Of a DNA stretch of 49,105 nt, positions 2,141 through 49,105 are shown piece by piece. Position numbers and translations under genes: made by a program. Origin of the DNA: an uncultured Klebsiella sp. (lineage in GTDB: Bacteria > Myxococcota_A > UBA796 > SXON01); the NCBI GenBank assembly GCA_964359125.1, contig CAYHRZ010000001.1, positions 1 to 49,105 on the forward strand, read 5' to 3'. The notes below the pieces were generated by a model. The model did no database searches. It saw nothing but the letters and a program-made list of their open reading frames with translations, and had not been told where the DNA came from. Every line of letters begins with the position of its first letter. Positions within the stretch are counted from its first letter, which is position 1.

Positions 2141-4924
2141 TCAGCACGAGGCCGCCCGGATGGCTTCCAGCACGCGCTCGGGCGTGAAGGGGATCCGGCG
2201 CAAGCGGATGCCCACGGCGTCGTAAATCGCGTTGGCGATCGCCGGGATCACCGGGTGCAAGGGCCCCTCGCCGGCCTCCTTGGCGCCGTAGGGACCGCCG
2301 GGGTCGATGCTCTCCACCACCGAGGCGAAAAAGTCGGGACACTCCTTCGACGTGGGAATCCGGTAGTCGAGCAGGTTCGGTCCGCCGTGCAGGCCGCGCT
2401 CGTCGAAGGTGTGCGCCTCCATGATCGCCTCCGCGTAGCCCATGTAGACGCTGCCCTCGATCTGCCCCTCCACCAGTTGCGGGTTGAGCGCGCGTCCGCA
2501 GTCGTGCGCCGCCCACACCTTCTCGACCCGCACGATCCCCGTCTCGGGATCGACGACCACCTCGCACACGTGGGCGGTGGTACTGTAGGCCGGCGAGGCG
2601 CCGATCGTTCCCCCGCGGTAGTCGCCGCCGATCTTCCGCGTGCGGTACCCGCCGGCGGTGGCCAGCGGCGTGCCCTCGGCGGCCTCAGCGAGCACCAGGG
2701 CCTCCCGCGCCGAGATGCTCCGGCCGGTGTCGTCGCCCAGTGTTCCAAAGCCCACCGTCACCGCTTCCGGCGTCGTTTCCCACGCCGTGGCCACGGCGGC
2801 GCGCATCTTGGCAGCCATCGCCTTCCCCGCCTCCTCGGCGGCGATGCCACACATGAAGGTAACCCGGGAGCTGTAACTACCCAGGTCCACCGGCGTGAGT
2901 TCCGTGTCGCCGCTCACCACGGTGATGTACTCCGGCGGCACACCCGTCTCCTCGGCCACGATGTAGGCGAGCATGCCGTCGCTGCCCTGGCCGATGTCGT
3001 TGGCCCCGCAGAACACGGTGATCTTGCCGCTGCGATCCGCCCGGAGGATCACCCCCGACTGGGGCATCTCGTTGGGGTAGATTGGGTACGCCGTGCCGCT
3101 GATATACATCGAGGTAGCCACCCCCAGGCCGCGTCCCCGGCCCATCTTGCCGTGACGACGTTTCCAGCCGGAGGCCCCCTCCACCGCGTCGAGGCAGGCA
3201 GCCAGTGCCGTGGACGGGACGAGCTGCCCGTTGACGGTGGACTGTCCCGACACCATGGCGTTGCGCCTGCGGATCTCGATTGGGTCGAGTGACAGTTTCG
3301 CGGCGATTTCGTCGAGCGCGATCTCGAAGGCAAAACGCGGCTGCACGCTGCCGTGCCCACGCTTGGGGCCACAGCAGGGCTTGTTCGTGTACACTCGCCG
3401 CGAGCGGAAGTGGTAGGTCCGGAAGTCGACCGGACCGGTGAGTAACTGCCCCGCGTAGTAGGTGGTGACGAGCCCGAACGAGTGGTAGGCGCCGCCGTCG
3501 ATGAGCACGTCGTTGTCGACCGCCGTGACCTTCCCGTTGGCATCCGCGCCCATCCGCATGTGCATCAGCATCGGGTGACGACCACGGTGGGCGTAGAACA
3601 CCTCCTCCCGGGTGTAGAGGATCTTCACCGGCCGCCCGGCCTTCTTCGCCAGCAAGGCCGTGCAGAACTCCAGGTCGAAGGGCTCGGACTTGCCCCCGAA
3701 GGCGCCGCCGAGCACCGGTTGGATGACGCGCACGCGCTCGCCGGGCAAGCCGAGCACCTTGCCCAGCTCCCGGTGCAGGTAGTGGCTCACCTGGGTGCTC
3801 GACCACACCGTGAGGAAGCCATCCGCGCTCCAGCTCGCCACCGCGCAGTGCGGCTCGATCGGGGCGTGCGTGGAGCCCTCGTAGAAGAACTCGGCGTCGA
3901 CGGTGGCCGCGGCCGCCGCAAGTTCGCCCTCCACGTCGCCGAAGGCCAGGTCCACTTCCTTGCACACGTTGTCGGTGCGCGGACGTCCCTTCCAGTCGGC
4001 CTCGTGGACCAGCGGGGCGCCGGGGGCCGCCGCAGCGGCAGGATCGAGCACCAGCGGCAGGTCCTCGTAGTCCACCTCGATGGCCGCCAGCGCCCGGTTG
4101 GCGGTCTCCTCGTCGATAGCCGCCACCGCCGCCACCCCCTCGCCGATGTAGCGGACCTTGCCCACCGCCAGCACCGTCTCGTCGGGCGTCCAGGGGATGA
4201 TGCAGTACGGCGTGGGCAACTCCGCGCCGGTCATCACCGCGAAGACCCCGGGCATCGCCTCGGCCGCCGCCACGCGGATGGCGAGGATCTTGGCGTGGGC
4301 GCGGGTGGACCGCAGGATCTTGCCGTGCGCCATCCGGGGCAGGGCGATGTCGTCGGCGTAAATGGCCTCGCCGGTGGCCTTCTTGATGGCGTCGGCCTTG
4401 CGCCCGCGTGCACCCAGGACGTTGAAGCCCGGCGCGGGTGTGCCGTACCGTAGCGGCACCTGCCGCGCCGTGGCGCCCGCGTTGCGCACGGCCTCGAAGA
4501 TCTTGGTGTAGCCGGTACACCGGCACAGGTTGCCCGACAGCGCCTCGCGGATGTCGGCGTCGCTCGGATTGGGCTGTCGCGACAAGAGTGCCTTCGCCGA
4601 CAGGATCATGCCCGGCTGGCAGAACCCGCACTGCAAGGCGCCCGCGACGTCGAAGGCGCGCTGCACGGGATCGGGGCCCTCGGCGGTGGCCAGGCCCTCG
4701 ATCGTGGTCACCTCGCCGCGGACGGCATGGGCCAGCGTCAGGCACGACAACGTGGGCTTGCCGTCCAACAACACCGTGCAGGCTCCACAGTCACCCTTGT
4801 CGCACCCCTGTTTGCTGCCGGTGAGCCCCGCGGCGTAGCGCAGCGCCTCGAGCAGGGTCCAGTGCTCGGGGACGGCGACGACGAGGTCGCTGCCGTTGAC
4901 GCGGAGTGAGCACGGCGAGGACAT
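2141..4924 (-). CDS. Fused [2Fe-2S] small subunit + molybdopterin-binding large subunit of the xanthine dehydrogenase / aldehyde oxidoreductase family
   Basis: The N-terminus carries CDKGDCGACTV...SC and QCGFCQPG...CRCTGY, the two [2Fe-2S] motifs. About 760 aa typical of the Mo-hydroxylase large subunit follow (a/b-hammerhead, GGAFGGK-type motif). Confidence 0.9.
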   Translation of the reverse strand: MSSPCSLRVNGSDLVVAVPEHWTLLEALRYAAGLTGSKQGCDKGDCGACTVLLDGKPTLSCLTLAHAVRGEVTTIEGLATAEGPDPVQRAFDVAGALQCGFCQPGMILSAKALLSRQPNPSDADIREALSGNLCRCTGYTKIFEAVRNAGATARQVPLRYGTPAPGFNVLGARGRKADAIKKATGEAIYADDIALPRMAHGKILRSTRAHAKILAIRVAAAEAMPGVFAVMTGAELPTPYCIIPWTPDETVLAVGKVRYIGEGVAAVAAIDEETANRALAAIEVDYEDLPLVLDPAAAAAPGAPLVHEADWKGRPRTDNVCKEVDLAFGDVEGELAAAAATVDAEFFYEGSTHAPIEPHCAVASWSADGFLTVWSSTQVSHYLHRELGKVLGLPGERVRVIQPVLGGAFGGKSEPFDLEFCTALLAKKAGRPVKILYTREEVFYAHRGRHPMLMHMRMGADANGKVTAVDNDVLIDGGAYHSFGLVTTYYAGQLLTGPVDFRTYHFRSRRVYTNKPCCGPKRGHGSVQPRFAFEIALDEIAAKLSLDPIEIRRRNAMVSGQSTVNGQLVPSTALAACLDAVEGASGWKRRHGKMGRGRGLGVATSMYISGTAYPIYPNEMPQSGVILRADRSGKITVFCGANDIGQGSDGMLAYIVAEETGVPPEYITVVSGDTELTPVDLGSYSSRVTFMCGIAAEEAGKAMAAKMRAAVATAWETTPEAVTVGFGTLGDDTGRSISAREALVLAEAAEGTPLATAGGYRTRKIGGDYRGGTIGASPAYSTTAHVCEVVVDPETGIVRVEKVWAAHDCGRALNPQLVEGQIEGSVYMGYAEAIMEAHTFDERGLHGGPNLLDYRIPTSKECPDFFASVVESIDPGGPYGAKEAGEGPLHPVIPAIANAIYDAVGIRLRRIPFTPERVLEAIRAASC

Positions 4925-4957
4925 AGGGCGGGGCTAACCGCGCTACGTTCCGCCGCC

Positions 4958-5389
4958 ATGGCCCTGCCCGACCCCTGGGAATCCCGACTCGCCCGCACCC
5001 GGGCCGAAGCCGGGCGATTCGCACCGTTCCTGGGCGAGTGGGTCGGCGGCGGCGAGGCCCACGGTACCGCCACCGGGGGCACGCTCTGCGGGGCGGCGAT
5101 CCTCGACGGCAGCATCGTGGAAGTGAACGAGCGCACCGGGGAGCACGAGGACCGTTCGTTCTACCGCTTCGACCCTGACAACGGTGGCTTCTCCGTGCTG
5201 CACATGATGGCGGGCGCCCACCTGCGCGAGTACCCAGTGGAGTTCACCGCGACGGGCCTGGTGTGGGTCACGCCGCCGAGCGAGCCCGCCGTGGAGTGGA
5301 CTTTCTCAGCCACCGAACTGGTGTGCGAGGTCACCTGGCCGGGCGACGAGCAGCCCGAGGTGCGCGTGCGCTGGCGGCGGTCGCGGTAG
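4958..5389 (+). CDS. Hypothetical small soluble protein (beta-barrel-like, DUF1579-like by eye)
   Basis: 143-aa ORF with an ATG start, good GC3 and a non-repetitive sequence ([13 protein letters not shown]...[16 protein letters not shown]...). Family assignment is tentative. Confidence 0.6.
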
Positions 5390-5399
5390 GAGGCCCGCT

Positions 5400-6482
5400 G
5401 TGCCCGGCAACAGCCTTGGTCGTCGCTTCCGGGTCACCACCTTCGGCGAGAGCCACGGCCCCGCCCTCGGCGTGGTGATCGACGGCGTGCCGCCGGGGAT
5501 CGTGCTGGACCTGGGCCACGTGGCCGCCGACCTCGCCCGGCGCCGCCCTGGCCAGTCCGCGATCACCAGCCCACGCAGGGAGGCCGACACCTTCGAGGTG
5601 CTCAGCGGCGTGTTCGAGGGCAAGACGCTGGGTACGCCACTGGCGATGCTGTTTCGCAACACCGACGTAAAATCAGCCGACTACGATAATCTTCGTGATA
5701 CGTATCGACCGTCTCACGCCGACTACACCTACGACGCGCGGTTCGGCCTGCGCGACCACCGCGGCGGCGGGCGTGCTTCAGCCCGGGAAACCGTGGGCCG
5801 GGTGGCGGCCGGCGCGGTGGCCCGACAGGTATTGCTGGCCCAGGGCATCGAGGTGGTGGCCTGGGTGGCCGAGGTGGCCGGTATCGGCTCGACGGTCGAC
5901 GACACCACGGTGGGCCGCCAGGACGTCGACGCCAACGACGTGCGCTGCCCCGACGTCGCGGCCGCCCCCGCCATCGACGCCGCCATCCGCGCCGCCCGCG
6001 CCGAGGGCGACACCCTGGGCGGCATCGTGCGCTGCACATGCCGAGGCGTGCCGCCCGGCCTCGGTAGCCCCGTGTTCGACAAGTTGGAAGCCGACCTCGC
6101 CAAGGCCATGTTGTCGATCCCCGCCGCCAAGGGCTTCGAGTCGGGTAGTGGCTACGGCGGCACGACGATGCGTGGTTCCGCCCACAACGACCCCTTCGTC
6201 CCCGGGCCTCGCGGCCCCGTCACCACCACCAACCACTCCGGCGGCATCCAGGGGGGCATCAGCAACGGCATGCCGGTGAACTTCTCGGTGGCGTTCAAGC
6301 CGGTGGCCACCATCTTCTCGCCCCAGAGCACGGTCAACGACCGCGGCGAGGCAGTGACGCTGAAACCCCGGGGCCGGCACGACCCCTGCGTCTTGCCGCG
6401 GGCGGTGCCCATCGTCGAGGCCATGGCGTGCCTCGTCCTGGTCGACCACTGGCTGGAACGGGTATGGCGCCCGGCCGGCTGA
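5400..6482 (+). CDS. aroC: Chorismate synthase
   Basis: N-terminus [31 protein letters not shown], plus RPSHADYTY and [11 protein letters not shown], are canonical AroC motifs. Length is 360 aa. Confidence 0.95.
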
Positions 6483-20583: not shown

Positions 20584-20592
20584 AATCCCCCC

Positions 20593-22998
<2,406 letters not shown>

Positions 22999-25628: not shown

Positions 25629-27668
25629 TCAGTCCGCCAGGGCGAGCACGCAGCCGTTCGACACCGGCTGCCCCGTGAACGCGTCGAGGGGCGCCGCGCC
25701 GAGCAGGGCGTTGGCCGCCACCCAGCCCGGGTCCTCGAGGGTGGCCACGGGCGTGCCGTAGGGCAGGATCACCACCCCGGCCCGCACCCCGGGCGACGAC
25801 TCCACCAGCACCGAGTGACAGCGCCCGTCGCGACCGGCCAGGCGCAGCACGCCGTCGGGGGCCAGGCGGGCCGCGTCGGCGGGGTGCAGCGTCGCCGGCC
25901 TCGGCGCGGCCGGCCCGCGCCGCGCCCTCGGCCAGGCCGCCGGGCGCCCGGCCGTGCCCGCCCCCCGCCCCGGCGGGGCGGCGTCGCGTTGCCCCAGCGC
26001 GGCCACGTAGGCCACGGGCGCCAACGACACACTCAGCGCTTCCTGCGCGTACTTCCGGGTGGCCAGGAGGCCACGGGGCGCCGCCGCAAGCGCGGACCAC
26101 GACAGGCCCGAGGCGGCGAGGACCGCGAGCCGGGCGAGGCCGCTGGGCCCGAGGGCCCGGGCCAGCGGGTGGGCCAGCCAACTGCCGAACAGCGGGCGCC
26201 GGGCGCCTCGCGACAGCGCCACGCAAACGTCCCAGTCCGGGCGGGCCTCGCCCACCGGCGGCACGACCGCGCCGCCCACCTGGAGGTGGGGGGCTGGCTT
26301 CTGCGAGGCCATGTGCAGGGTGCTGTCCCACCGCTCCAACCACGTGGCCGCCGGGAGAACCACGTCGGCCAGCGCGGTGGTGTCGTTGTGGTAGGCGTCG
26401 ACCGCGACCAGCAGGTCCAGGCGCGACAGCGCCTCGCGAACCTTCGGCGTGTCGGGACAGGACCGCAGCGGGTTGCCCCCGAAAACCACCAGGCCGCGCA
26501 TGCGGTCCGGCCCGTCGGTGAGCACGTCGTCGGCCATGGTCGCGGCCGCGTGCGTGCCGAGCACGGCGGGGTAGCCGCCCACGCGCGAGCGATTACCCGG
26601 GTCCGAACCGCGCATCCCCGCGAGGCGCAACAGGCGGGACAGGTCCACCGCACTGCCCGGCCGCACCCAGCCGCCGGGGCGATCCAGGCCCCCGGTCAGC
26701 GCCTGCAAGCACAGGGTCAACCACCACCCCAGCGTGGCGTCGGGCCCGAGGAGGATCCCTAGCCCCGACCAGAAGAGGGGGCGGTCCGCCGAGCGCACGC
26801 GGTCCGCCAGCGCCGACAGCGTCGCGACGTCGAGCCCCACGACGGCCGACACCCTCTCGGCGGAGAACGCCTCCACCGCTGCGGCGATCGCCGCCACGTC
26901 CGGGGCGGAAACCGTCACTCGCTGCACTAGCCCCGGGCGCGGCACCCGGGTGGCCTCGCGCACCAGGTACGCGAGCAAGAACCGGTCGGTGCCAGAGCGA
27001 ACAGGTAGGTGCAAACTCGCGTGGCGGGCGGTGGCGGAAGCCCGCGGGTCCACCACCACGAGGCGGTCTTTCGCCCGCAAGAGTTGGCGCACCCCGTCGG
27101 GGTTCGACTGCGCCTGCGAGGGTTGCGAGGCCAGGGGGTCGGTGCCGAACAGGACGATGCAGTCGCTGTGGGCGTAGTCGGCGGTAAAGGTGGTGGTGGC
27201 ATCGCCAAACACCGCCTCGGCCACCACGAACTGCGGCGCGTTGTCGAGGGTGAGCGCGCTGTACGACTTGCGGATGCCCAAGGAGCGGGCGAACGCCGTG
27301 GTACCGACCACCGCGCCGAAGTTGTGAATCACGGCGTTACCGAGGTACAAGCCGAGCGCCTCGGAGCCGTGTTCGTGGCGGAGCCGGCGGAGCGCGGGGC
27401 CCACCCGGTCCAGGGCCTCGTCCCACGACGCGCGGCGGAGTTGGCCGCCGCGGGTGTCACGAAGCAACGGCGTGGCGAGCCGTCCTTCGCCCCGCAGGCG
27501 CTCGTTGAACTTCAGGCCCTTGGTGCAGGCATAACCGTGGGAAACCGGGTGACCGGGGTCGGGGGACAAGCGCACCACCTCCCCACCGCGCACCTCGGCG
27601 AGCAAACCACAAGCCGACTCGCACACCCGGCACCAGGTGGGCACCAACGCCGGCGCGAGGCTACCCAA
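25629..27668 (-). CDS. Molybdopterin (MopB superfamily) oxidoreductase with N-terminal [4Fe-4S] motif
   Basis: CRVCESACG...C (C-x2-C-x3-C-x26-C) at the N-terminus, 679 aa, with MopB-like body and C-terminal barrel. No TAT signal is seen. It overlaps the upstream GMC gene by 8 nt. Confidence 0.85.
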   Translation of the reverse strand: MGSLAPALVPTWCRVCESACGLLAEVRGGEVVRLSPDPGHPVSHGYACTKGLKFNERLRGEGRLATPLLRDTRGGQLRRASWDEALDRVGPALRRLRHEHGSEALGLYLGNAVIHNFGAVVGTTAFARSLGIRKSYSALTLDNAPQFVVAEAVFGDATTTFTADYAHSDCIVLFGTDPLASQPSQAQSNPDGVRQLLRAKDRLVVVDPRASATARHASLHLPVRSGTDRFLLAYLVREATRVPRPGLVQRVTVSAPDVAAIAAAVEAFSAERVSAVVGLDVATLSALADRVRSADRPLFWSGLGILLGPDATLGWWLTLCLQALTGGLDRPGGWVRPGSAVDLSRLLRLAGMRGSDPGNRSRVGGYPAVLGTHAAATMADDVLTDGPDRMRGLVVFGGNPLRSCPDTPKVREALSRLDLLVAVDAYHNDTTALADVVLPAATWLERWDSTLHMASQKPAPHLQVGGAVVPPVGEARPDWDVCVALSRGARRPLFGSWLAHPLARALGPSGLARLAVLAASGLSWSALAAAPRGLLATRKYAQEALSVSLAPVAYVAALGQRDAAPPGRGAGTAGRPAAWPRARRGPAAPRPATLHPADAARLAPDGVLRLAGRDGRCHSVLVESSPGVRAGVVILPYGTPVATLEDPGWVAANALLGAAPLDAFTGQPVSNGCVLALAD

Positions 27669-29190
27669 GGGCCAGGCCGCGCCCGATGATCGTCGCCATC
27701 GCCATGGTGGTGATCGACGGGTTCACGCCCAGCGACGTCGGGAAGATCGAGCTGTCGGCGAGGTAGAGGCCGTCCACTGCGTGCGCCCGGCCGTCGGCCC
27801 GGATGACGCTGGTGGCGGGGTCCACTCCCATCCGGCACGACGACATGGGATGCGACGCGTACAGCGTGAAGTCGCGGATGGTCTTCGTCGACAGGGCCGC
27901 CTCCATCGCCTCGGGCGAGTCCACCATGCCCGCGCCCGCCACGGCGCAGAACAACCGCCGGGCGCCGCCGGCGAGCAGCACCCGGGCGCTGGCCACCATC
28001 CCCCGCTTCACCCGTTCCACGTCGTCGGGGTCGAAGTCGTAGCTGATCTTGGCCCGCCCGTCGGGCCAAGCGCTCACCCTGCCGGATCCCTTGTCGCTCA
28101 CCATCACCAACAGCCCCGCGAGGTGGTCGAGCAGGCCCAGCGCTTCCGGCGCGGGCACGCCCACCGCCGCCAGCGCCAGCAAGGCCACCTCGGGCGGCAG
28201 GGAACTGGTGTGGGGCAGGACCCCGGGCAGGTCCGGCACGTGGAAGTAGGCGCCCTGCGTGGCGCCGCGCCACCAGTACACCGGCGTGTCGGTGATGCCG
28301 AAGACCCCGTTCCCCGGGTGGACGTGGAGCCCCTTCCCCACCGCCGGGCCCAGGTCCAGCCCGGAGTGCGCGAGCAGGCGAGGGGTGCCGATGCCGCCAC
28401 ACGCGACCACCACCCGCGCCGCGCGCACCGTCACCCTGCCGCCGGGCTCGTGGCTGTCGGGGTGGAAACACTGTCCCCGCACGCCCACCACTCGACCGTC
28501 CTCGACGATGAAGCTCGACACCCGGGTGTCGGCGAGGATGCTCGCCCCGTTGGCGCAGGCCTCCACCAGGAGGTTGTGGTTGACACTCGCCTTGCAGCCC
28601 GAGGGACAACCGAACTTGCAGGTCCCGCAACCCACGCAGCGCGGGGTCGCGCGGGAGAGGTAACCCCCGTCGTACCCCACCTTCTGCACGCCACGGACGA
28701 CGAGGTCGTTGTTCTCGCCCGAGATCTCCTTCCGGGTTTCCCAAATGCCGAGCAACTCCCAGAGTTCGTCGTAGACCGGCCTCATGGCGGCGGCGTCGAA
28801 GTGATCGGCTCCGATCACGCCGGTCCAGCCGTCGAGCACGTCGTCCGGGCACCGCCAGGCGATGGCGCTGTTGATCAGCGAACCGCCGCCCACGCCGCGC
28901 CCGGCGGCGATGGGCATGAAGGTCGAACCCGTGGCCACCATCGCGCCGCCTTCCTGCATGTGGTAGCGCATCGTCTGCCCCTGGTTGGGCCGGAAGCGCT
29001 CCTGCGGCGGTCCCTCCTCGATCACCAGCACCCTCGCGCCGGCCAGGGCCAGAACGCGCGCCAACGCCGCGCCGCCGGGCCCGCTGCCCACCACGCACAC
29101 GTCGACGGCCAGGTCGCGGTCGGCGGTGGCGAACCCCTCGGCCTCCGGGGCCGCCTGCCACAAGACGCCGTCGCCCGGGGCCCAGCGCAC
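27661..29190 (-). CDS. GMC-family FAD oxidoreductase
   Basis: DVCVVGSGPGGAALARVLALAGARVLVIEEG dinucleotide fold. C-terminus has ADSSIFPTSLGVNPSITTMAMA. Confidence 0.9.
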   Translation of the reverse strand: MRWAPGDGVLWQAAPEAEGFATADRDLAVDVCVVGSGPGGAALARVLALAGARVLVIEEGPPQERFRPNQGQTMRYHMQEGGAMVATGSTFMPIAAGRGVGGGSLINSAIAWRCPDDVLDGWTGVIGADHFDAAAMRPVYDELWELLGIWETRKEISGENNDLVVRGVQKVGYDGGYLSRATPRCVGCGTCKFGCPSGCKASVNHNLLVEACANGASILADTRVSSFIVEDGRVVGVRGQCFHPDSHEPGGRVTVRAARVVVACGGIGTPRLLAHSGLDLGPAVGKGLHVHPGNGVFGITDTPVYWWRGATQGAYFHVPDLPGVLPHTSSLPPEVALLALAAVGVPAPEALGLLDHLAGLLVMVSDKGSGRVSAWPDGRAKISYDFDPDDVERVKRGMVASARVLLAGGARRLFCAVAGAGMVDSPEAMEAALSTKTIRDFTLYASHPMSSCRMGVDPATSVIRADGRAHAVDGLYLADSSIFPTSLGVNPSITTMAMATIIGRGLALG

Positions 29191-36371: not shown

Positions 36372-36666
36372 ACGGTGGGGAGCAAGGCCTTGCCGACCAA
36401 AAAATGGTCGTCATCACCTGCGATCCCCGCAACCGGAGATCAACCGTCACCTTCGACCCCGCTCGTCAACGGGCGCCTCCCCGCGGGGGCGGCGCGGAGC
36501 GTTGTTGCGACGGCGAGGTCGGCGGCCGGCTGATGTCGCGGTGGGCGACCTTGTCTGGCGACACCCCGGCGGGGACGTAGGGGCAGGGCGGTTTGCCGCC
36601 GGGCAGGGCGCTGCCACGCCCGGTGCTCGCGGCGCGCGGAGCCGCGACTTCGCCCGACCCGGCCAC

Positions 36667-36690
36667 GCGCCCCACGTGGGTCGCCGACCC
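36667..36690. repeat. CCCACGTGGG-core repeat, copy 3
   Basis: GCGCCCCACGTGGGTCGCCGACCC; intergenic. Confidence 0.8.
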
Positions 36691-36763
36691 ACGCACACGG
36701 CCGGACTGGCGCACACCCGCGCCCGCGACGCCGCCACGCGCCGCGCCCGGCTGCCGTTCCTGT

Positions 36764-36778
36764 GACCCACGTGGGTCG
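36764..36778. repeat. CCCACGTGGG-core repeat, copy 4 (14-bp perfect palindrome GACCCACGTGGGTC)
   Basis: Read directly; intergenic. Confidence 0.8.
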
Positions 36779-36845
36779 TGAACTTCGAACCCAACGATGG
36801 GGCGACGGCAGGCCGCCAGCGCGAGGGGACGCCGCTCCCGGCCAA

Positions 36846-36864
36846 GCGCCCCACGTGGGTCGTG
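36846..36864. repeat. CCCACGTGGG-core repeat, copy 5
   Basis: GCGCCCCACGTGGGTCGTG; intergenic. Confidence 0.8.
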
Positions 36865-36959
36865 TGCCCGCTGCCTCACGATGCCCTTGCTCTCGCCCGC
36901 CCGCCGCGGGATCACCTCGCACTCCCTCGCGCCCCGCCCGCCGGATAACAGGCGTCACG

Positions 36960-38831
36960 ATGCTAACCCTCCTCGCGGGCTGCCTCGTCAATACCGCGCT
37001 CTACGAGCGTCGGGTGCAGGAGCTCTCCGACGCCGACCAGGACGGTTTTGTCAACCCCGCCGAGGGCGGCAACGACTGCGACGACGACGACGCTGCGGTG
37101 TACCCCGGCGCCACGGAGGTCCCTTACGACGGGATCGACCAGGACTGCGACGGCAGCGACCTCGACGACGGCGACAACGACGGGATCGAGGCCGAGGCCG
37201 CCGGCGGGACGGACTGCGACGACGACGACGACGACACCTTCCCGGGCGCCACCGACGCCTGCTACGACGGGGTCGACAATGACTGCGGCGGCGACGACGA
37301 CTTCGACTGCGACGGCGACGGCCACCGGGTCGACAGCAGCACTGGCGGCACCGACTGCAACGACGGCGACGCGACGATCTACCCCGGTGCTGTGGATTCA
37401 TGTTACGACGACGTCGACAGCGACTGCGCGGGCGACGACGATTTTGACTGCGACGGCGACGGCTACACCGAGAGCGACGGCGACTGCGACGACGACGACG
37501 CCACCCAGTTCCCCGGGGCCGACGAGGGCTGGGGGGACCTCGGCACCGCCAACGCCTGCGACGGCGCCATCGACGACCCGGTCAGCGCCTCGTTGGCCGA
37601 CGCCGACGTCATCGTCGATCCCCCCGCCGACTACGGCTACTTCGGATCCACCCTCGGCCCCGTGCACGACCTCGACGGCGACGGGATCGACGAGGTGTTC
37701 GTGTCTGCCCCCTACGCCAGCCCCGACGTGCCCTACCAGGGGGCGGCGTTCCTGGTCCGCGGCGCCGATCTCGCGGGCCACCTCACGCTCGACGCGACAC
37801 ACGACCAGTTGCTCGCCCCCGACACCTACAGCTTCCTCACCGCGCACGGCACCGGGGAACTCGAAGGCGTGGGCGGCGAGTTCCTCTTCGTGGCCTCTGG
37901 CGCCGCCGCCGACGGCGCGGGCGTCACCTGGGCCGTCGCGACCGGGAGCATCCTCGACGGGGGCGCGCAGGATCCCGCCAACGTCGCGGTCGCGACGTTC
38001 ACGGGCGCCGACGGTGACTACGCGGGCACCGCCCCTGTCACCGGTCGCGACATCGACGGCGACGGCGTGCACGACCTCCTCCTCGACGCCATCGGCACCG
38101 GCCGCGCGCTCGGTTTCTCGTCCCCCGGCGGCGGCGCGCACGGCGCTGACGACGCCGACTGGGTTTGGACGCCGTCGCCCACCGGCGACTACCTGATCCT
38201 CCGCGTGCCCGGCGATGTTGACGGCGATGGCACCGACGACGTGGGGATCACGCAGGGGCCCGACGCGGGGGACGCGGTGGGCGCGGCCCTGTACCGGGGC
38301 GGCGCGGGGCTCGCGGGAGGGGAGTTTGGGGAGGGGGCTGCGTTCTACCTGCTTGGGTCGCCCACGTTGGAGGCGGTGGCCGACACCGCTGCCGGCTCCG
38401 CCCTCGTTGTCCTGGCGTTTCAGGCATCGTTGTTTGTCGAGCCCCAGGAAGGGGCCACGTACGATCCCCTCGCGGGGGCCGACTACCAGCTCTTCAGGAC
38501 TGCCGACGAGGCCGCCTTCTCCGGTGCGCTGTGGAGCCCCTCGCTCGGAGCGGCGCAGGCGGCTCTCGTGCTCGCGGCCTACGCCCACCCGGAGGGCACG
38601 CAGACGGGCGAGTGCGTCGTGTGGCGCATGGGAGAATTCAGCGTCGACGACTTCTCGACCGACTTGGCGCTGCGCCTACGAGGCGAACGGCCCGGCGACC
38701 GCGCCTGCGCGGCGCTCAGCGTGGCTCCAGATCTCGACGGCGACGGCCGCGGCGAACTAATGGTCGGCGCCCCCCTTGCCGACGGCACGTCGGCGGACTC
38801 GGGTCGGGCCTACATCCAGCTCAACCCGTGA
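36960..38831 (+). CDS. Lipoprotein with MopE-like Cys-rich repeats and FG-GAP repeats (paralog of 20593-22998)
   Basis: ATG 36960, MLTLLAGC lipobox. Repeats are [27 protein letters not shown]-type. C-terminal FG-GAP units (DLDGDG...GAP). Confidence 0.85.
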
Positions 38832-45087: not shown

Positions 45088-46329
45088 TCAGTCCTCGAAG
45101 CTCTTCACCACCGGCGAGGCCGCCTTCTTGCGACGGGCCGCCGCCTCCCGGGCGCCCTGGGCAGTGGTGGCCCGCCGGGTGCGCGCGTGGCGAACCGGCT
45201 CGCCGGTGTCGAGGGTGCCGCCGGCGGCGAGGCGCTCCACCTGCCCGATCAGGTGGCGGTCGCGGTCGGTGACGAGGTTGAACACACGTCCCTTGCGACC
45301 CATGCGCCCCACCCGTCCGATGCGGTGAACGTAGTCGCTGGCGCGCTCGGGCAACTCCCAGTTCAGGACGAAGCCCAGGTCCAGCATGTCCAGCCCGCGC
45401 CCGGCCAGTTCCGTGGTGACGAGGACCCGTCCCTCCCCCCGGCGAAACCGCTCCAGGGCCTGCTTGCGCTCTCGCGGCAACAGTCCCCCGTGGACGATCA
45501 CCGCCTCGTGGCCGCGCTCTGCCAGGGAGGCCCCGGCGGCATCGGCCGTTTCCCGGCGGTTGCAGAACACGATGCCGCGGACCCGGTCCCCCAGCGAGGT
45601 GAGCAGGTCGCTCGCGGCGTCGGCACGCTGCGCGGGCTTGATGGGGATGTTCTTGGTGACCAGCGTATCGGGGGCGGTGTGGGCGTCTTTGGACCAGAGC
45701 ACGGCCGGCACCACCGGTCGCACCGAGAGCCAGTGGCGGATGGGCTCCGGCAGCGTGGCCGAGGCCCACCAGCACTCCCCGCGTGACGATGCCGCGATCA
45801 CGGCTTCCACGGGGGGGCGTTGCCCGGGAGCGAGCAAGGTGTCGACCTCGTCGATCACCAGGATCCGCACGTCGGAGAGGTCCACCAGGCCCTGCTTGAC
45901 CAGCATCGCCAGCCGCGGCGGGTTCGCCACCAGCACGTCGAAGACCTCGCCCAGGCGGCGCTTTGTGTCTCCGGGCAGCTCGCCGCCGCTCACCAACCGC
46001 ACGCGTAGCCTCGCGGCGTGGGTGAGCGCCTTGAGCGCCCTCGCCGTCTGCACCACCAACTCGCGGGTACTGGTGAGCACGACGCCCCGTGGGCGCGCCG
46101 CCACCGCCTGTGCGCCCTCCTCCTCCTCCACCGCCCGCAGCCGCTGCACCAGAGGCACGCCGTAGGCGTAGGTCTTGCCGGAGCCGGTGCGGGCCACGGC
46201 TACGGCGGCCTTCCCGCCGAGGAACGCGGGGATGGCGAGGCGCTGCACGGGCGAGGGCGTCACCACCTGCACTTTCTGCAAGGCGGCCACGAGTTCCTCG
46301 GCCACGCCGAGGTCGGCGAAGGTGGACAT
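45088..46329 (-). CDS. DEAD-box ATP-dependent RNA helicase (motif II is DEVD)
   Basis: Q-motif region TPSPVQ, ARTGSGKT, VIDEVD, SAT, HRIGRVGRMG. Confidence 0.9.
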   Translation of the reverse strand: MSTFADLGVAEELVAALQKVQVVTPSPVQRLAIPAFLGGKAAVAVARTGSGKTYAYGVPLVQRLRAVEEEEGAQAVAARPRGVVLTSTRELVVQTARALKALTHAARLRVRLVSGGELPGDTKRRLGEVFDVLVANPPRLAMLVKQGLVDLSDVRILVIDEVDTLLAPGQRPPVEAVIAASSRGECWWASATLPEPIRHWLSVRPVVPAVLWSKDAHTAPDTLVTKNIPIKPAQRADAASDLLTSLGDRVRGIVFCNRRETADAAGASLAERGHEAVIVHGGLLPRERKQALERFRRGEGRVLVTTELAGRGLDMLDLGFVLNWELPERASDYVHRIGRVGRMGRKGRVFNLVTDRDRHLIGQVERLAAGGTLDTGEPVRHARTRRATTAQGAREAAARRKKAASPVVKSFED

Positions 46330-47001: not shown

Positions 47002-47259
47002 CTAGCGAGCCCCGGCACCCGAGGCCGGTCGCAAGATCGCGCACACCGCGAGCTGGTGGGCGAGGTCGGCACCGCGACCCGCCGCGGTGGGCCAGCCCCG
47101 CGCGGTGAGGCGGGCGGCCTCGTACAGGTCGATGGCGATGCGCACCTTCACGCCGACCGGCTGTGCTGCACGCCAGGCGGGGTCGAGCCGTGCGGTGGCC
47201 CCCCAGTCGCGGCGGACGTGGGCGCGGAGGCTGGCCGGGTCCAGTTCAGGCAGGGCCAT
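47002..47259 (-). CDS. Hypothetical small protein (85 aa)
   Basis: ORF with an ATG start and acceptable GC3. I recognise no motif, so the call is weak. Confidence 0.35.
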   Translation of the reverse strand: MALPELDPASLRAHVRRDWGATARLDPAWRAAQPVGVKVRIAIDLYEAARLTARGWPTAAGRGADLAHQLAVCAILRPASGAGAR

Positions 47260-47294
47260 CGCGCCACCTCGGCACCCCGGGGTACGATGAGCCG

Positions 47295-48278
47295 ATGCTA
47301 CTCCTCGTCACCTCGGCCCTCGCCCTCGAGTTCAACGTCAACGTGGACCTCCCCCCCGAGGCGGTGGCCGCCGGCCTCGACGCCGACGCCATGGAGGCCG
47401 AGTTGAAGGCCGCCATCGACGAGAAGCTCCACGTGGCCGACATGGGCGGCTACCTCGACCAGATGGCGAACGCGAACCTGCTCTCCGCCAAGGGCATGGG
47501 CGCCGACTACGGCAGCGACATGCAGCGCTTCGCCTTCGGCGGCGCCTTCGGGACGGCGGTCAACGGGGCCGGCCTGAACTTCGACGGCGGCGGCGAGGCC
47601 GTCCCAGAGACCGGCTTCGCCTTGCAGATCGGCATCATGGCGGGGCTCAACCTCGGCGCCTTCTCCGACGAGGACAGCGCGCTCCGCCGGTTCAAGATCT
47701 ACGTGTCGGGCATGAGCGCCACCACCGCCCGCGACCCGCTCGAGGGCACTTTCTTCAACTACGCCGCGCACGCGCAGATCAAGGTGGTGAAGGGGGGAAG
47801 CGTCACCGACCCCGTCCGCTGGGGCGGACTGGACCTCACCAGTGGCTACGAGTTCTCCAGCTACGTGCTCACCCTGGCCCAGGACATGCCGGTCAACTCC
47901 GATCCCCTCACGTGGGACGCCACCGGCACCTACACCCTGTCCGCCGAGGGCACGAGCATTCCGGTGGAAGTCTCGACGAACTTCCACGTGCTGGTGGTCA
48001 CGGCCTGGGTCGGCGCCGCGCTGGACTACAACCTGTCCGGCACGGCCGACAGCGAGGTGGGCGTAGCCGGCCCCATCACCGTTTCCTACGACGGCAAGGA
48101 CGCCGACGCCGGGAGCGCGAGTGTGTCACTGAGCGAGAGCGGCATCGCCGAGACATACACGCCGAGAGCATTCGTAGGACTGCAAGCCGATATCTTCTTC
48201 GTCAAGCTCTACGGACAACTCAACGTCACCCTCGACGAGAGCGTGGGGGGACAGCTCGGCGCGCGGGTGGTTTTCTAG
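47295..48278 (+). CDS. Putative outer-membrane beta-barrel protein
   Basis: Hydrophobic N-terminus, Gly/aromatic-rich alternating strands, C-terminal ...QLGARVVF ending in Phe (beta-signal-like). The start is uncertain. Confidence 0.6.
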   Translation: MLLLVTSALALEFNVNVDLPPEAVAAGLDADAMEAELKAAIDEKLHVADMGGYLDQMANANLLSAKGMGADYGSDMQRFAFGGAFGTAVNGAGLNFDGGGEAVPETGFALQIGIMAGLNLGAFSDEDSALRRFKIYVSGMSATTARDPLEGTFFNYAAHAQIKVVKGGSVTDPVRWGGLDLTSGYEFSSYVLTLAQDMPVNSDPLTWDATGTYTLSAEGTSIPVEVSTNFHVLVVTAWVGAALDYNLSGTADSEVGVAGPITVSYDGKDADAGSASVSLSESGIAETYTPRAFVGLQADIFFVKLYGQLNVTLDESVGGQLGARVVF

Positions 48279-48317
48279 CCCAGGCGCGATTCCCCGCAGC
48301 CCGTGATACGTTGCGGC

Positions 48318-48965
48318 ATGCTTCTCCTCCCCTTCTTCCTCGCCTGCGTTCCCGTCGACGACGGCAAACTCGACGGCAACGACACCAGCGGTGGCACCGA
48401 GCAGTCCGACAGCGGACCGTTGTCCTACGACACCTACGCCTGCGGCTGGGAGAAGCGGGACCCCGGCACGCTGTCGAGCACCGGCAGCAAGGTCGGCGAC
48501 GTGCTCGCCGACGTGGCGTGGATGGACCAGTGCGGCGAAGAAGTGCGCGTCTGGGACATGTACGGGAAGTACTTCATCCTGTTTCTCACTGCCGCCTGGT
48601 GAGGCTCGTGCATCGCGGAGGCCGGTGGCCTCCCAGAGGAAATCGAGAGCTTCCGGGAAGATAACCCGGAGATCCCCTTCGATGGCTTCGTGATCGGACT
48701 CTACGAAGACACGAACTCCAACAACCCCCCCAAGAACCCCGACAAGCTCTCCGTCGACTACGCCGAGGCCACGGACCTCGGGCAGCAACTGCCCGTCACC
48801 TCGGACCTCGACGGCACGATGGACGAGGTGGTGCCCATGGACGGCGGGCGCCCCTTCAAGTGCGCGATGAGCCCCGAGATGGTGATGCTCGACTGCGCGA
48901 GCTCATCCCGCAACAAGCAGGCGTTTGGCGCGATCGAGGATCACTGGGCCGACAACGGCGGCTAG
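48318..48965 (+). CDS. Thioredoxin-fold (TlpA/ResA-like) lipoprotein, candidate selenoprotein with in-frame UGA (Sec) at 48600-48602
   Basis: MLLLPFFLAC lipobox. ...GKYFILFLTAAW-TGA-GSCIAEAGGLPEE... sits where thiol:disulfide oxidoreductases have WCxxC. The frame stays open from 48603 to TAG 48965, joining track ORFs 48303-48602 and 48690-48965, which share one frame. A hairpin lies 14 nt after the TGA. Confidence 0.7.
48617..48633 (+). promoter_or_regulatory. Candidate bacterial SECIS hairpin
   Basis: GGAGGCC-GGT-GGCCTCC: a perfect 7-bp stem with a G-rich GGU apical loop, 17 nt long, starting 14 nt 3' of the in-frame TGA. Confidence 0.6.
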
Positions 48966-48989: not shown

Positions 48990-49038
48990 GGCGCGATGAA
49001 TCGCGCCACCACGTGCCGGGGCGCCACCACGTGCCGGG
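48990..49038. repeat. Composite element E2: hairpin GGCGCGATGAATCGCGCC + perfect 18-bp tandem duplication (GCGCCACCACGTGCCGGG x2)
   Basis: Hairpin at 48990-49007; tandem units at 49003-49020 and 49021-49038. It lies in a convergent intergenic gap. The reverse complement mirrors E1 at 29730-29779. Confidence 0.75.
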
Positions 49039-49105
49039 GCGCGACCGGAGGGGCGGCCGCGACTACTTCGCCGGCCCCGAGGCCGCCGTCTCCGCCACGT
49101 ACACC

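Follow-up and report, generated by a model that had tools for sequence, protein, structure and literature searches.

The 49,105-nucleotide stretch of contig CAYHRZ010000001.1 (assembly GCA_964359125.1) analysed here, which we call the window, carries close to its right-hand end a gene whose reading frame is broken once, by the TGA at 48600-48602. We consider it very likely that this TGA is a selenocysteine (Sec) codon and that the gene encodes a lipoprotein resembling the thiol:disulfide oxidoreductases ResA and TlpA. The in-frame TGA is conserved among relatives, it pairs in alignments with cysteine, a hairpin of the bacterial selenocysteine insertion sequence (SECIS) type is conserved just behind it, and the protein has a thioredoxin-like fold and a lipobox. 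The features to which we refer throughout are as follows:

48303-48965, plus strand: full gene of the predicted selenoprotein, a single frame with one internal TGA
48318-48347, plus strand: putative lipoprotein signal peptide with lipobox F-L-A-C, by pattern match; codon of the predicted lipidated Cys10 at 48345-48347
48435-48533, plus strand: conserved extension near the N-terminus, Y-A-C-G-W-E ... D-Q-C, in which Cys42 (48441-48443) and Cys72 (48531-48533) do not vary
48600-48602, plus strand: TGA, very likely read as selenocysteine U95, first residue of the U-G-S-C redox motif, as judged from homolog columns
48609-48611, plus strand: TGC for the resolving Cys98 of the UxxC motif, invariant in all alignments
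48617-48633, plus strand: SECIS-type hairpin GGAGGCC-GGU-GGCCUCC, within the codons for A-E-A-G-G-L-P
48861-48896, plus strand: C-terminal cysteine pair, Cys182 (48861-48863, P-x-K-C) and Cys193 (48894-48896)

The interrupted frame and its relatives

The preliminary description of this region had proposed that a single frame, 48318-48965, is interrupted by nothing other than one TGA, and translation together with the frames of the open reading frames (ORFs) bears this out: ORFs 48303-48602 and 48690-48965 lie in the same frame, and a translation of 48303-48965 meets just one internal stop, the TGA at 48600-48602, with ...GKYFILFLTAAW before it and GSCIAEAGGLPEE... after it. Read with Sec, the active-site stretch becomes FILFLTAAW-U-GSCIAEAGGLPEEIESFR. 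The gene may start at GTG 48303 (MIRCGMLLLPFFLAC...) or at ATG 48318 (MLLLPFFLAC...) and stops at TAG 48963-48965, which gives a product of about 215-220 amino acids counting Sec. In a window of 71% G+C, the G+C content at third codon positions (GC3) is 0.88 before the TGA and 0.89 after it, a coding-type composition on both sides. Elsewhere in the window TGA is an ordinary stop, at which many other high-GC3 ORFs end; the chorismate synthase gene (5208-6482), for instance, terminates there with a complete Pfam match, and the organism therefore uses the standard code.

A first protein search, in which cysteine was substituted for the internal stop of the window protein, returned three full-length homologs (36-41% identity, 73-95% query cover), all of which read TAAW-C-xx-C. 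Scanning one genome per species then located 12 related loci in Myxococcota, Polyangiaceae and "Deltaproteobacteria" metagenome-assembled genomes (MAGs), every one with a TGA at exactly the same column and conserved sequence onward to a normal stop. A separate scan of metagenomes added 29 loci, for 41 in total. The site is reached in 40 of these (locus L041 ends short of it) and is TGA in 33 and Cys in seven. The TGA-bearing loci span 43-73% G+C, their proteins are 34-51% identical, and the context of their TGA is TAAW-U-xx-C. In all relatives the frame is conserved directly from the TGA, including the 29 codons that lie ahead of GTG 48690; where the preliminary description had allowed that homologs might end at this position, they run on in frame with conserved C-terminal motifs.

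The same picture emerges from a much larger set. A profile search of a collection of 5.8 billion proteins gave 219 matches at E <= 1e-10, the best 120 of which comprise 67 full-length Cys forms (TAAWCxxC and variants) and 53 stubs of 125-171 amino acids that end in ...T-A-A-W (one in ...T-A-G-W). Most of the full-length matches cover 88-98% of the query. Four stubs were read at the DNA level, and in each the called stop is a TGA beyond which the frame stays open for about 112 further codons with the C-terminal motifs of the family. Cysteine, which had been anticipated opposite the TGA, thus aligns exactly with it in seven loci and in 67 database proteins among the best 120 of 219. The 53 stubs also substantiate the earlier remark that automated annotation truncates this gene: those that carry a name among the best 120 are called "hypothetical protein", and only Cys forms are called at full length, the one with a specific name being a "redoxin domain-containing protein [Myxococcota bacterium]". 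Sec forms probably outnumber Cys forms among the 99 matches beyond the best 120, as against 53 to 67 within them. A further profile search, seeded with P0001-3, was flooded by giant proteins with TSP3 repeats because its profile included the repeat linker, and it was used just to spot truncated and full-length members. In a rough neighbour-joining tree without support values, the Cys forms are interspersed with the Sec forms in four or more distinct places, the scatter expected of repeated exchange between Sec and Cys.

A SECIS-type hairpin behind the TGA

The perfect 7-bp hairpin that had been pointed out 14 nt past the TGA is indeed present at 48617-48633, with the arms GGAGGCC (48617-48623) and GGCCTCC (48627-48633) around a GGT loop (48624-48626) that begins 21 nt past the TGA. 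The published model of the bacterial SECIS calls for a loop of 3-9 nt, a stem of 4-16 bp, a G in the first two loop bases, a distance of 16-37 nt from UGA to loop and a minimum free energy (MFE) of -7.5 or better (PMC13188914). The window hairpin, whose 21-nt segment folds at -13.6 kcal/mol, lies within all of these limits, and the initial view that its size and spacing are SECIS-like agrees with the model. Taken alone, such a structure is uncommon but not unique in the window: 12 of its 731 TGA trinucleotides (1.6%) precede, at SECIS distance, a perfect stem of at least 7 bp whose first two loop bases include a G, and the fold of the whole 66-nt region is just modestly more stable than those of its shuffles (z = -1.8).

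The weight therefore falls on comparison, for which we assembled the window and the 32 loci with enough downstream sequence (locus L040 ends right after its TGA), that is, 33 sequences of which 31 are distinct. These align free of gaps, and RNAalifold finds in them one consensus helix, at columns 24-29/35-40, which is the hairpin of the preliminary description. With a stem of 6-7 bp and a loop of 3-5 nt, it keeps a fixed register in all 31. The five inner pairs (25-29) are paired in every Sec sequence, and the closing pair covaries (GC 18, CG 6, AU 1). In the 7-bp version 87.6% of cells pair, compared with 82.0 ± 1.3 in shuffles, none of 500 of which reaches the observed value; sliding the 3' arm lowers pairing to 33-57%. 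Every one of the 31 segments folds at -8.0 kcal/mol or better, inside the -7.5 SECIS limit.

As the arms lie within codons for conserved residues (E-A-x-x-L), we used the Cys homologs as a control. Local MFE averages -11.0 kcal/mol in Sec forms (the weakest at -8.0) and -4.1 kcal/mol in 10 Cys forms (Mann-Whitney p = 1.8e-5), and eight of these 10 lack the hairpin even though nine retain Glu-Ala. The Glu codon under the hairpin is GAG in 31 of 31 Sec forms versus six of 10 Cys forms. In Sec forms the fourth codon has the form NGC or NGU throughout, coding for Gly, Ser or Arg; the fifth is CUC, CUU or UUC, with CUG absent even where a locus has 43-48% G+C. The RNA structure, kept in Sec forms along with this fixed codon choice, therefore constrains both the synonymous sites and the amino acids permitted there; the Glu and Leu codons in particular answer the suggestion in the preliminary description that the hairpin be checked for synonymous-site constraint.

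One Cys homolog deserves separate mention. P0002 (L045:4224-4973), which has TGC at the site, carries a full hairpin, GAGGCCGGCGGCCUC, at -10.7 kcal/mol and in SECIS register. It may reflect a recent conversion from Sec to Cys, or the structure may be older than the Sec codon.

Fold, chemistry and competing explanations

That the protein has a thioredoxin fold, as had been proposed from its motifs, is supported by both profile and structure searches, which place it with ResA and TlpA. Pfam scores the window protein against AhpC-TSA (PF00578) at 25.3 bits over its full length and 26.0 for the domain alone, with the cut-off at 26; PF00578 is matched by 33 of 33 family members at E <= 0.01 (best 7.6e-10). 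NCBIfam adds weak TlpA and ResA matches, and no NCBIfam selenoprotein model recognises the window protein. A 33-member profile run against the PDB matches Etrx1 (4hqs, 5e-8), ResA (about 3e-7) and TlpA (1jfu, 4e-3) with the CxxC motifs aligned: W-U-G-S-C stands opposite ASWCSIC of Etrx1 and GTWCPHC of ResA, so that the TGA pairs with the first Cys of WCxxC, where it had been placed at the outset. For a structure we turned to P0030, a Cys homolog with 46% identity to the window protein, whose AlphaFold model, built from 67 sequences, has a predicted local distance difference test score (pLDDT) of 89.8 and a helix, 94-100, that begins right after C93 (a model from only three sequences reached pLDDT 54, and we set it aside). 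The best Foldseek matches to the P0030 model are ResA, Etrx2, a Bacillus ResA-like oxidoreductase and Mycobacterium tuberculosis DsbF, with target-normalised template modelling scores (TM-scores) of 0.72-0.79; peroxiredoxins come lower.

The N-terminus carries an export signal of the lipoprotein kind. The preliminary description had called the product a lipoprotein, and by pattern match the lipobox is present in the window (FFLAC) and conserved in relatives: a pattern of the lipobox type, in which a hydrophobic run precedes [AGS]-C, occurs in 34 of 42 loci (the 41 related ones and the window), as a pattern match only, and the others have no visible N-terminus or no ATG start. A9 and C10 are invariant in alignment A1. 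Beyond the anchor, neither alignment A3 (33 sequences) nor the set of 67 Cys homologs shows any variation at Y1, C3, G4, W5 and C33 of the N-terminal extension, and A3 varies hardly at all at C143 and C154 of the C-terminal pair. In the profile alignment, the cis-Pro loop of ResA falls opposite the Pro that precedes Cys182 by three residues ("elpgkc" over "PLPTTF"). Judging from the sequence, Cys42/Cys72 and Cys182/Cys193 might form two structural disulfides, as would suit an exported protein. Most members further have two DxDxDG (bacterial TSP3) motifs in a linker that are absent from the window copy and from its nearest relatives, L001, L002 and P0001.

Considering these properties together, the gene product would be an exported, lipid-anchored thiol:disulfide oxidoreductase of the ResA/TlpA/Etrx type in which Sec takes the place of the first active-site Cys. 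The hairpin at 48617-48633, with its GGU loop 21 nt past the UGA, would recruit SelB with Sec-tRNA(Sec), so that the UGA at 48600-48602 would be decoded as Sec and not as a stop. Export would follow, with lipidation at Cys10. Once outside the cytoplasm, the U95/C98 pair would probably cycle between selenol/thiol and selenenylsulfide, reducing the disulfides of client proteins and presumably drawing electrons from a donor of the CcdA/DsbD type.

Proteins of this general kind are well known. The preliminary description had regarded selenoproteins with a UxxC motif in a thioredoxin fold as an established class, and the literature agrees, as they are the dominant bacterial class, including a "Prx-like thiol:disulfide oxidoreductase" (PF00578) and a "thiol:disulfide interchange protein" (PMC2398784, PMC13188914, PMC1794560). 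Prx-like UxxC selenoproteins have been reported from Geobacter, from Syntrophus and, as "Prx-like 1/3", in Global Ocean Sampling (GOS) data (PMC2398784, PMC1794560, PMC13188914). Like these Prx-like and Trx-like proteins, the present family has a thioredoxin fold with weak similarity to PF00578/PF08534, Sec first in UxxC, many Cys homologs, a SECIS hairpin straight after the UGA, and an abundance in marine metagenomes and deltaproteobacteria-like lineages. Unlike them, it bears a subfamily signature, which consists of the lipobox, usually two DxDxDG repeats (not in the window copy), Y-A-C-G-W-E...D-Q-C, T-A-A-W-U-x-x-C-x-x-E-A and P-G-K-C...C; a look through the accessible part of the GOS supplement brought up neither YACGWE nor TAAWU nor motifs like them. 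Since the class is established, the window gene is a new member or subfamily rather than a new kind, and the family counts as a member or subfamily of the UxxC selenoproteins that is new or at any rate uncurated.

It is not the "UGSC-containing" family of the GOS and Sargasso Sea data, which consists of small proteins with a conserved U-G-S-C and no Pfam domain. The present family matches PF00578, and the residues between U and C vary among orthologs (U-GA/GR/SP/SG/GG/AG/PG/TG-C), so the UGSC spelling is specific to the window and incidental.

Comparison with individual systems sharpens the assignment. As in Bacillus subtilis ResA, and likewise CcmG/DsbE and M. tuberculosis DsbE/DsbF, the protein is extracytoplasmic by prediction and membrane-tethered, with a WCxxC-type motif that starts helix 1, an aligned cis-Pro loop and, in relatives, a gene that adjoins genes for c-type cytochromes; ResA leads its structural matches and ranks among the best by sequence. 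It differs from ResA in sequence (15-17% identity in the structural alignment), in having Sec for the N-terminal Cys, in a lipid anchor where ResA has a transmembrane helix, and in four extra conserved Cys. Etrx1 and Etrx2 of Streptococcus pneumoniae are also lipoproteins with an extracytoplasmic TlpA-like domain, and Etrx1 (4hqs) is the top profile match; unlike the present protein they use CxxC. The Etrx proteins serve methionine sulfoxide reductase (Msr), and no Msr gene was seen adjoining the family gene. The hairpin resembles the SECIS of Escherichia coli fdhF in being a stem-loop right 3' of the UGA within the coding sequence, with a small apical loop that includes G-U and a spacing of 16-37 nt; it differs in having no sequence similarity to it and no detected conserved bulged U or long lower stem.

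Among the competing explanations, the one that survives best accepts the selenoprotein and assigns it another function, that of a redox enzyme, such as a thiol peroxidase, supplied by neighbouring cytochromes. The Pfam matches are AhpC-TSA and Redoxin, peroxiredoxins do appear further down the structure search, Sec is typical of peroxide-reducing enzymes, and in L001 and L036 a neighbouring gene carries a dihaem cytochrome c peroxidase (CCP_MauG) domain, joined in L001 to a PKD domain. We nonetheless think this function unlikely, as W-U-x-x-C with Thr at -4 is of the thioredoxin type and not the peroxiredoxin P-x-x-x-T-x-x-C, and it is ResA, Etrx, DsbF and TlpA, rather than peroxiredoxins, that come out best by sequence and structure. 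Membership in the peroxiredoxins proper (P-x-x-x-T/S-x-x-C(U)) was rejected on the same stretch, F-L-T-A-A-W-U-G-S-C.

The remaining explanations concern decoding itself. UGA could be recoded to Cys by a tRNA-Sec-like tRNA(Cys) in a SelB-type manner, or to Trp or Gly by a suppressor tRNA. Recoding systems with tRNA-Sec-like tRNA(Cys) exist, any SelB-like, structure-dependent recoding would leave the same conserved hairpin and UGA, and the Cys homologs indicate that Cys is chemically acceptable at the site. That UGA is an ordinary stop in the window speaks against general suppression, however; for Cys, a plain TGC would do with no need of recoding machinery, as is seen in the Cys homologs that are dispersed over the tree; and the UxxC thioredoxin fold is the commonest bacterial selenoprotein class (PMC2398784). 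We therefore judge recoding to another amino acid to be very improbable. Slimmer again is the chance that the UGA is a genuine stop, leaving a peptide of about 95 amino acids that has no redox motif and perhaps a second product that starts at GTG 48690. Gene callers do read it so, and the public products are named "hypothetical protein", but the N-terminal piece would end one residue before the thioredoxin active site, without helix 1 and all that follows, and in all relatives the in-frame conservation of the C-terminal part begins at the TGA itself. Finally, a pseudogene or a sequencing or assembly error that turned a Cys codon (TGC/TGT) into TGA, conceivable in that TGA is one base from TGC and Cys homologs exist, is effectively refuted by the comparative data, given the same TGA in 31 distinct sequences from independent assemblies with frame and motifs conserved downstream, at least 53 more gene calls that stop at the same residue, a downstream GC3 of 0.89, and a SECIS-fitting structure that accompanies the TGA specifically.

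Several observations weigh against Sec decoding or against parts of the proposal. First, direct signs of the Sec machinery, whose presence in the source genome we assume, are missing from the DNA at hand: a tblastn search with E. coli SelA, SelB and SelD found no match in the window and 41 loci (332 kb), ARAGORN reported no tRNA, hence no tRNA-Sec, in the window or L001-L012, and a Pfam scan of 40 window ORFs showed no sel gene. Second, the RNA element has no Rfam match, either over the whole window at gathering thresholds or over 48560-48700 at E up to 10; its arms lie in codons for conserved residues, so that its conservation is partly at the protein level; the Sec sequences are related to one another, so the shuffle statistics overstate their independence; and two Cys forms retain the hairpin, P0002 (L045) in full and L035 in a weaker form (-8.2). 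Third, the window protein scores at or just under the Pfam gathering cut-off (25.3 vs 26). Last, as to genomic context, no cytochrome neighbourhood is seen in the window: none of the five upstream genes has a homolog in any related locus, and the window ends 140 nt past the stop. Within those last 140 nt a convergent minus-strand ORF may even reach its 3' end, with its stop at the shared CTAG.

As to selenium use more broadly, Anaeromyxobacter, a member of the Myxococcota, has 11 selenoproteins (PMC1794560), and our literature search on Myxococcota selenoproteomes turned up nothing specific. A scan of the window and the loci for other in-frame TGA codons that have both a Cys context and a hairpin produced nothing but out-of-frame noise. 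One other candidate in the window, TGA 45088-45090 on the minus strand, was rejected: it is the stop of a DEAD-box helicase gene, and the next gene lies 37 nt on in the same frame.

Gene neighbourhood and possible clients

In relatives the gene keeps the company of cytochromes. A pentahaem protein of about 710-780 amino acids with five CxxCH motifs is encoded within 2 kb of the family gene in at least 21 related loci. In L008, L009, L011 and L012 it lies about 2 kb downstream of the Sec gene, with a dihaem protein of about 365-390 amino acids encoded in between in at least L009 and L012; in L002 it is fused to a multicopper oxidase. On long contigs the Sec gene and the dihaem and pentahaem genes are the sole shared block, and in L048 and L050 the stop of the selenoprotein gene overlaps the next start by 4 nt.

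The order of this cassette can be read from L048:10001-13985 and L050:10001-13952: the Sec-containing ResA-like lipoprotein comes first, a dihaem PSCyt1-like protein of about 365 amino acids second, and the pentahaem protein, here of about 700-780 amino acids with a CarboxypepD_reg domain, third. Other relatives that bear it include L002, L003, L004 and L007-L012. In L048, L049, L050 and L051 the genuine stop of the selenoprotein gene is also a TGA, within an ATGA overlap with the next gene, so that one mRNA holds a recoded and a terminating TGA some 340 nt apart. The closest relatives of the window gene, L001:10277 and L002:4276, are paralogous Sec copies from one and the same Myxococcota MAG (JBMOQZ01), each adjoining a different large cytochrome or copper protein.

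ResA reduces the CxxCH of apocytochromes, and c-type cytochromes are its known clients. Because ResA is the top structural match and cytochromes are neighbours in relatives, the likeliest clients of the selenoprotein are either the cysteines that attach haem in the CxxCH motifs of the co-encoded extracytoplasmic cytochromes or the copper proteins encoded nearby, the latter by analogy with TlpA. A Sec-containing reductase for the maturation or maintenance of the co-encoded cytochromes is thus a tentative proposal, which we hold at somewhat under even chances on the strength of the relatives' neighbours and the ResA match. The full version is no likelier, namely that the family is a dedicated Sec counterpart of ResA/CcmG, lipid-anchored and co-transcribed with dihaem and pentahaem extracytoplasmic cytochromes c (in some cases fused to a multicopper oxidase), which it would mature or keep reduced in marine Myxococcota-like bacteria. 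No ccm, res or ccs genes were seen beside the family gene, and the Pfam scan of 40 window ORFs showed no DsbD or CcdA domain.

The window itself has other content of passing interest. The five upstream genes include those for a chalcone-isomerase-like protein and the DEAD-box helicase and a Pfam-less ORF of about 371 amino acids (47163-48278, plus strand), which ends in ...GARVVF and has no homolog beside the family gene in other loci; its C-terminal Phe is reminiscent of outer-membrane beta-barrel proteins. Just downstream of the selenoprotein stop, at 49003-49046, is an 18-nt tandem repeat, GCGCCACCACGTGCCGGG, in 2.4 copies (96% match). Two paralogs of about 770-800 amino acids (20584-22998 and 36534-38831, both plus strand) combine MopE-type putative copper-binding motifs with FG-GAP repeats. 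On the minus strand, 25629-27722, 2141-4933 and 1188-2567 encode a molybdopterin oxidoreductase with an Fe4S4 domain and a xanthine-dehydrogenase-type molybdenum hydroxylase with its FAD subunit; the frame of the oxidoreductase is uninterrupted, so it is not a Sec-type formate dehydrogenase.

To a specialist the gene will be expected rather than surprising, the UxxC thioredoxin-fold type having long been established. A family model with U at the TGA column would nevertheless mend many gene calls in marine Myxococcota-like MAGs and add a marker of selenium use in this group. The scattered Cys forms, one of them with the hairpin, offer a clean case for the study of Sec/Cys exchange and of the birth or decay of a SECIS inside a coding sequence. 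The link to the dihaem and pentahaem cassette provides a concrete, testable client for an extracytoplasmic selenoprotein and, if it is true, this would be the first selenoprotein linked to the biogenesis of cytochrome c or of copper proteins.

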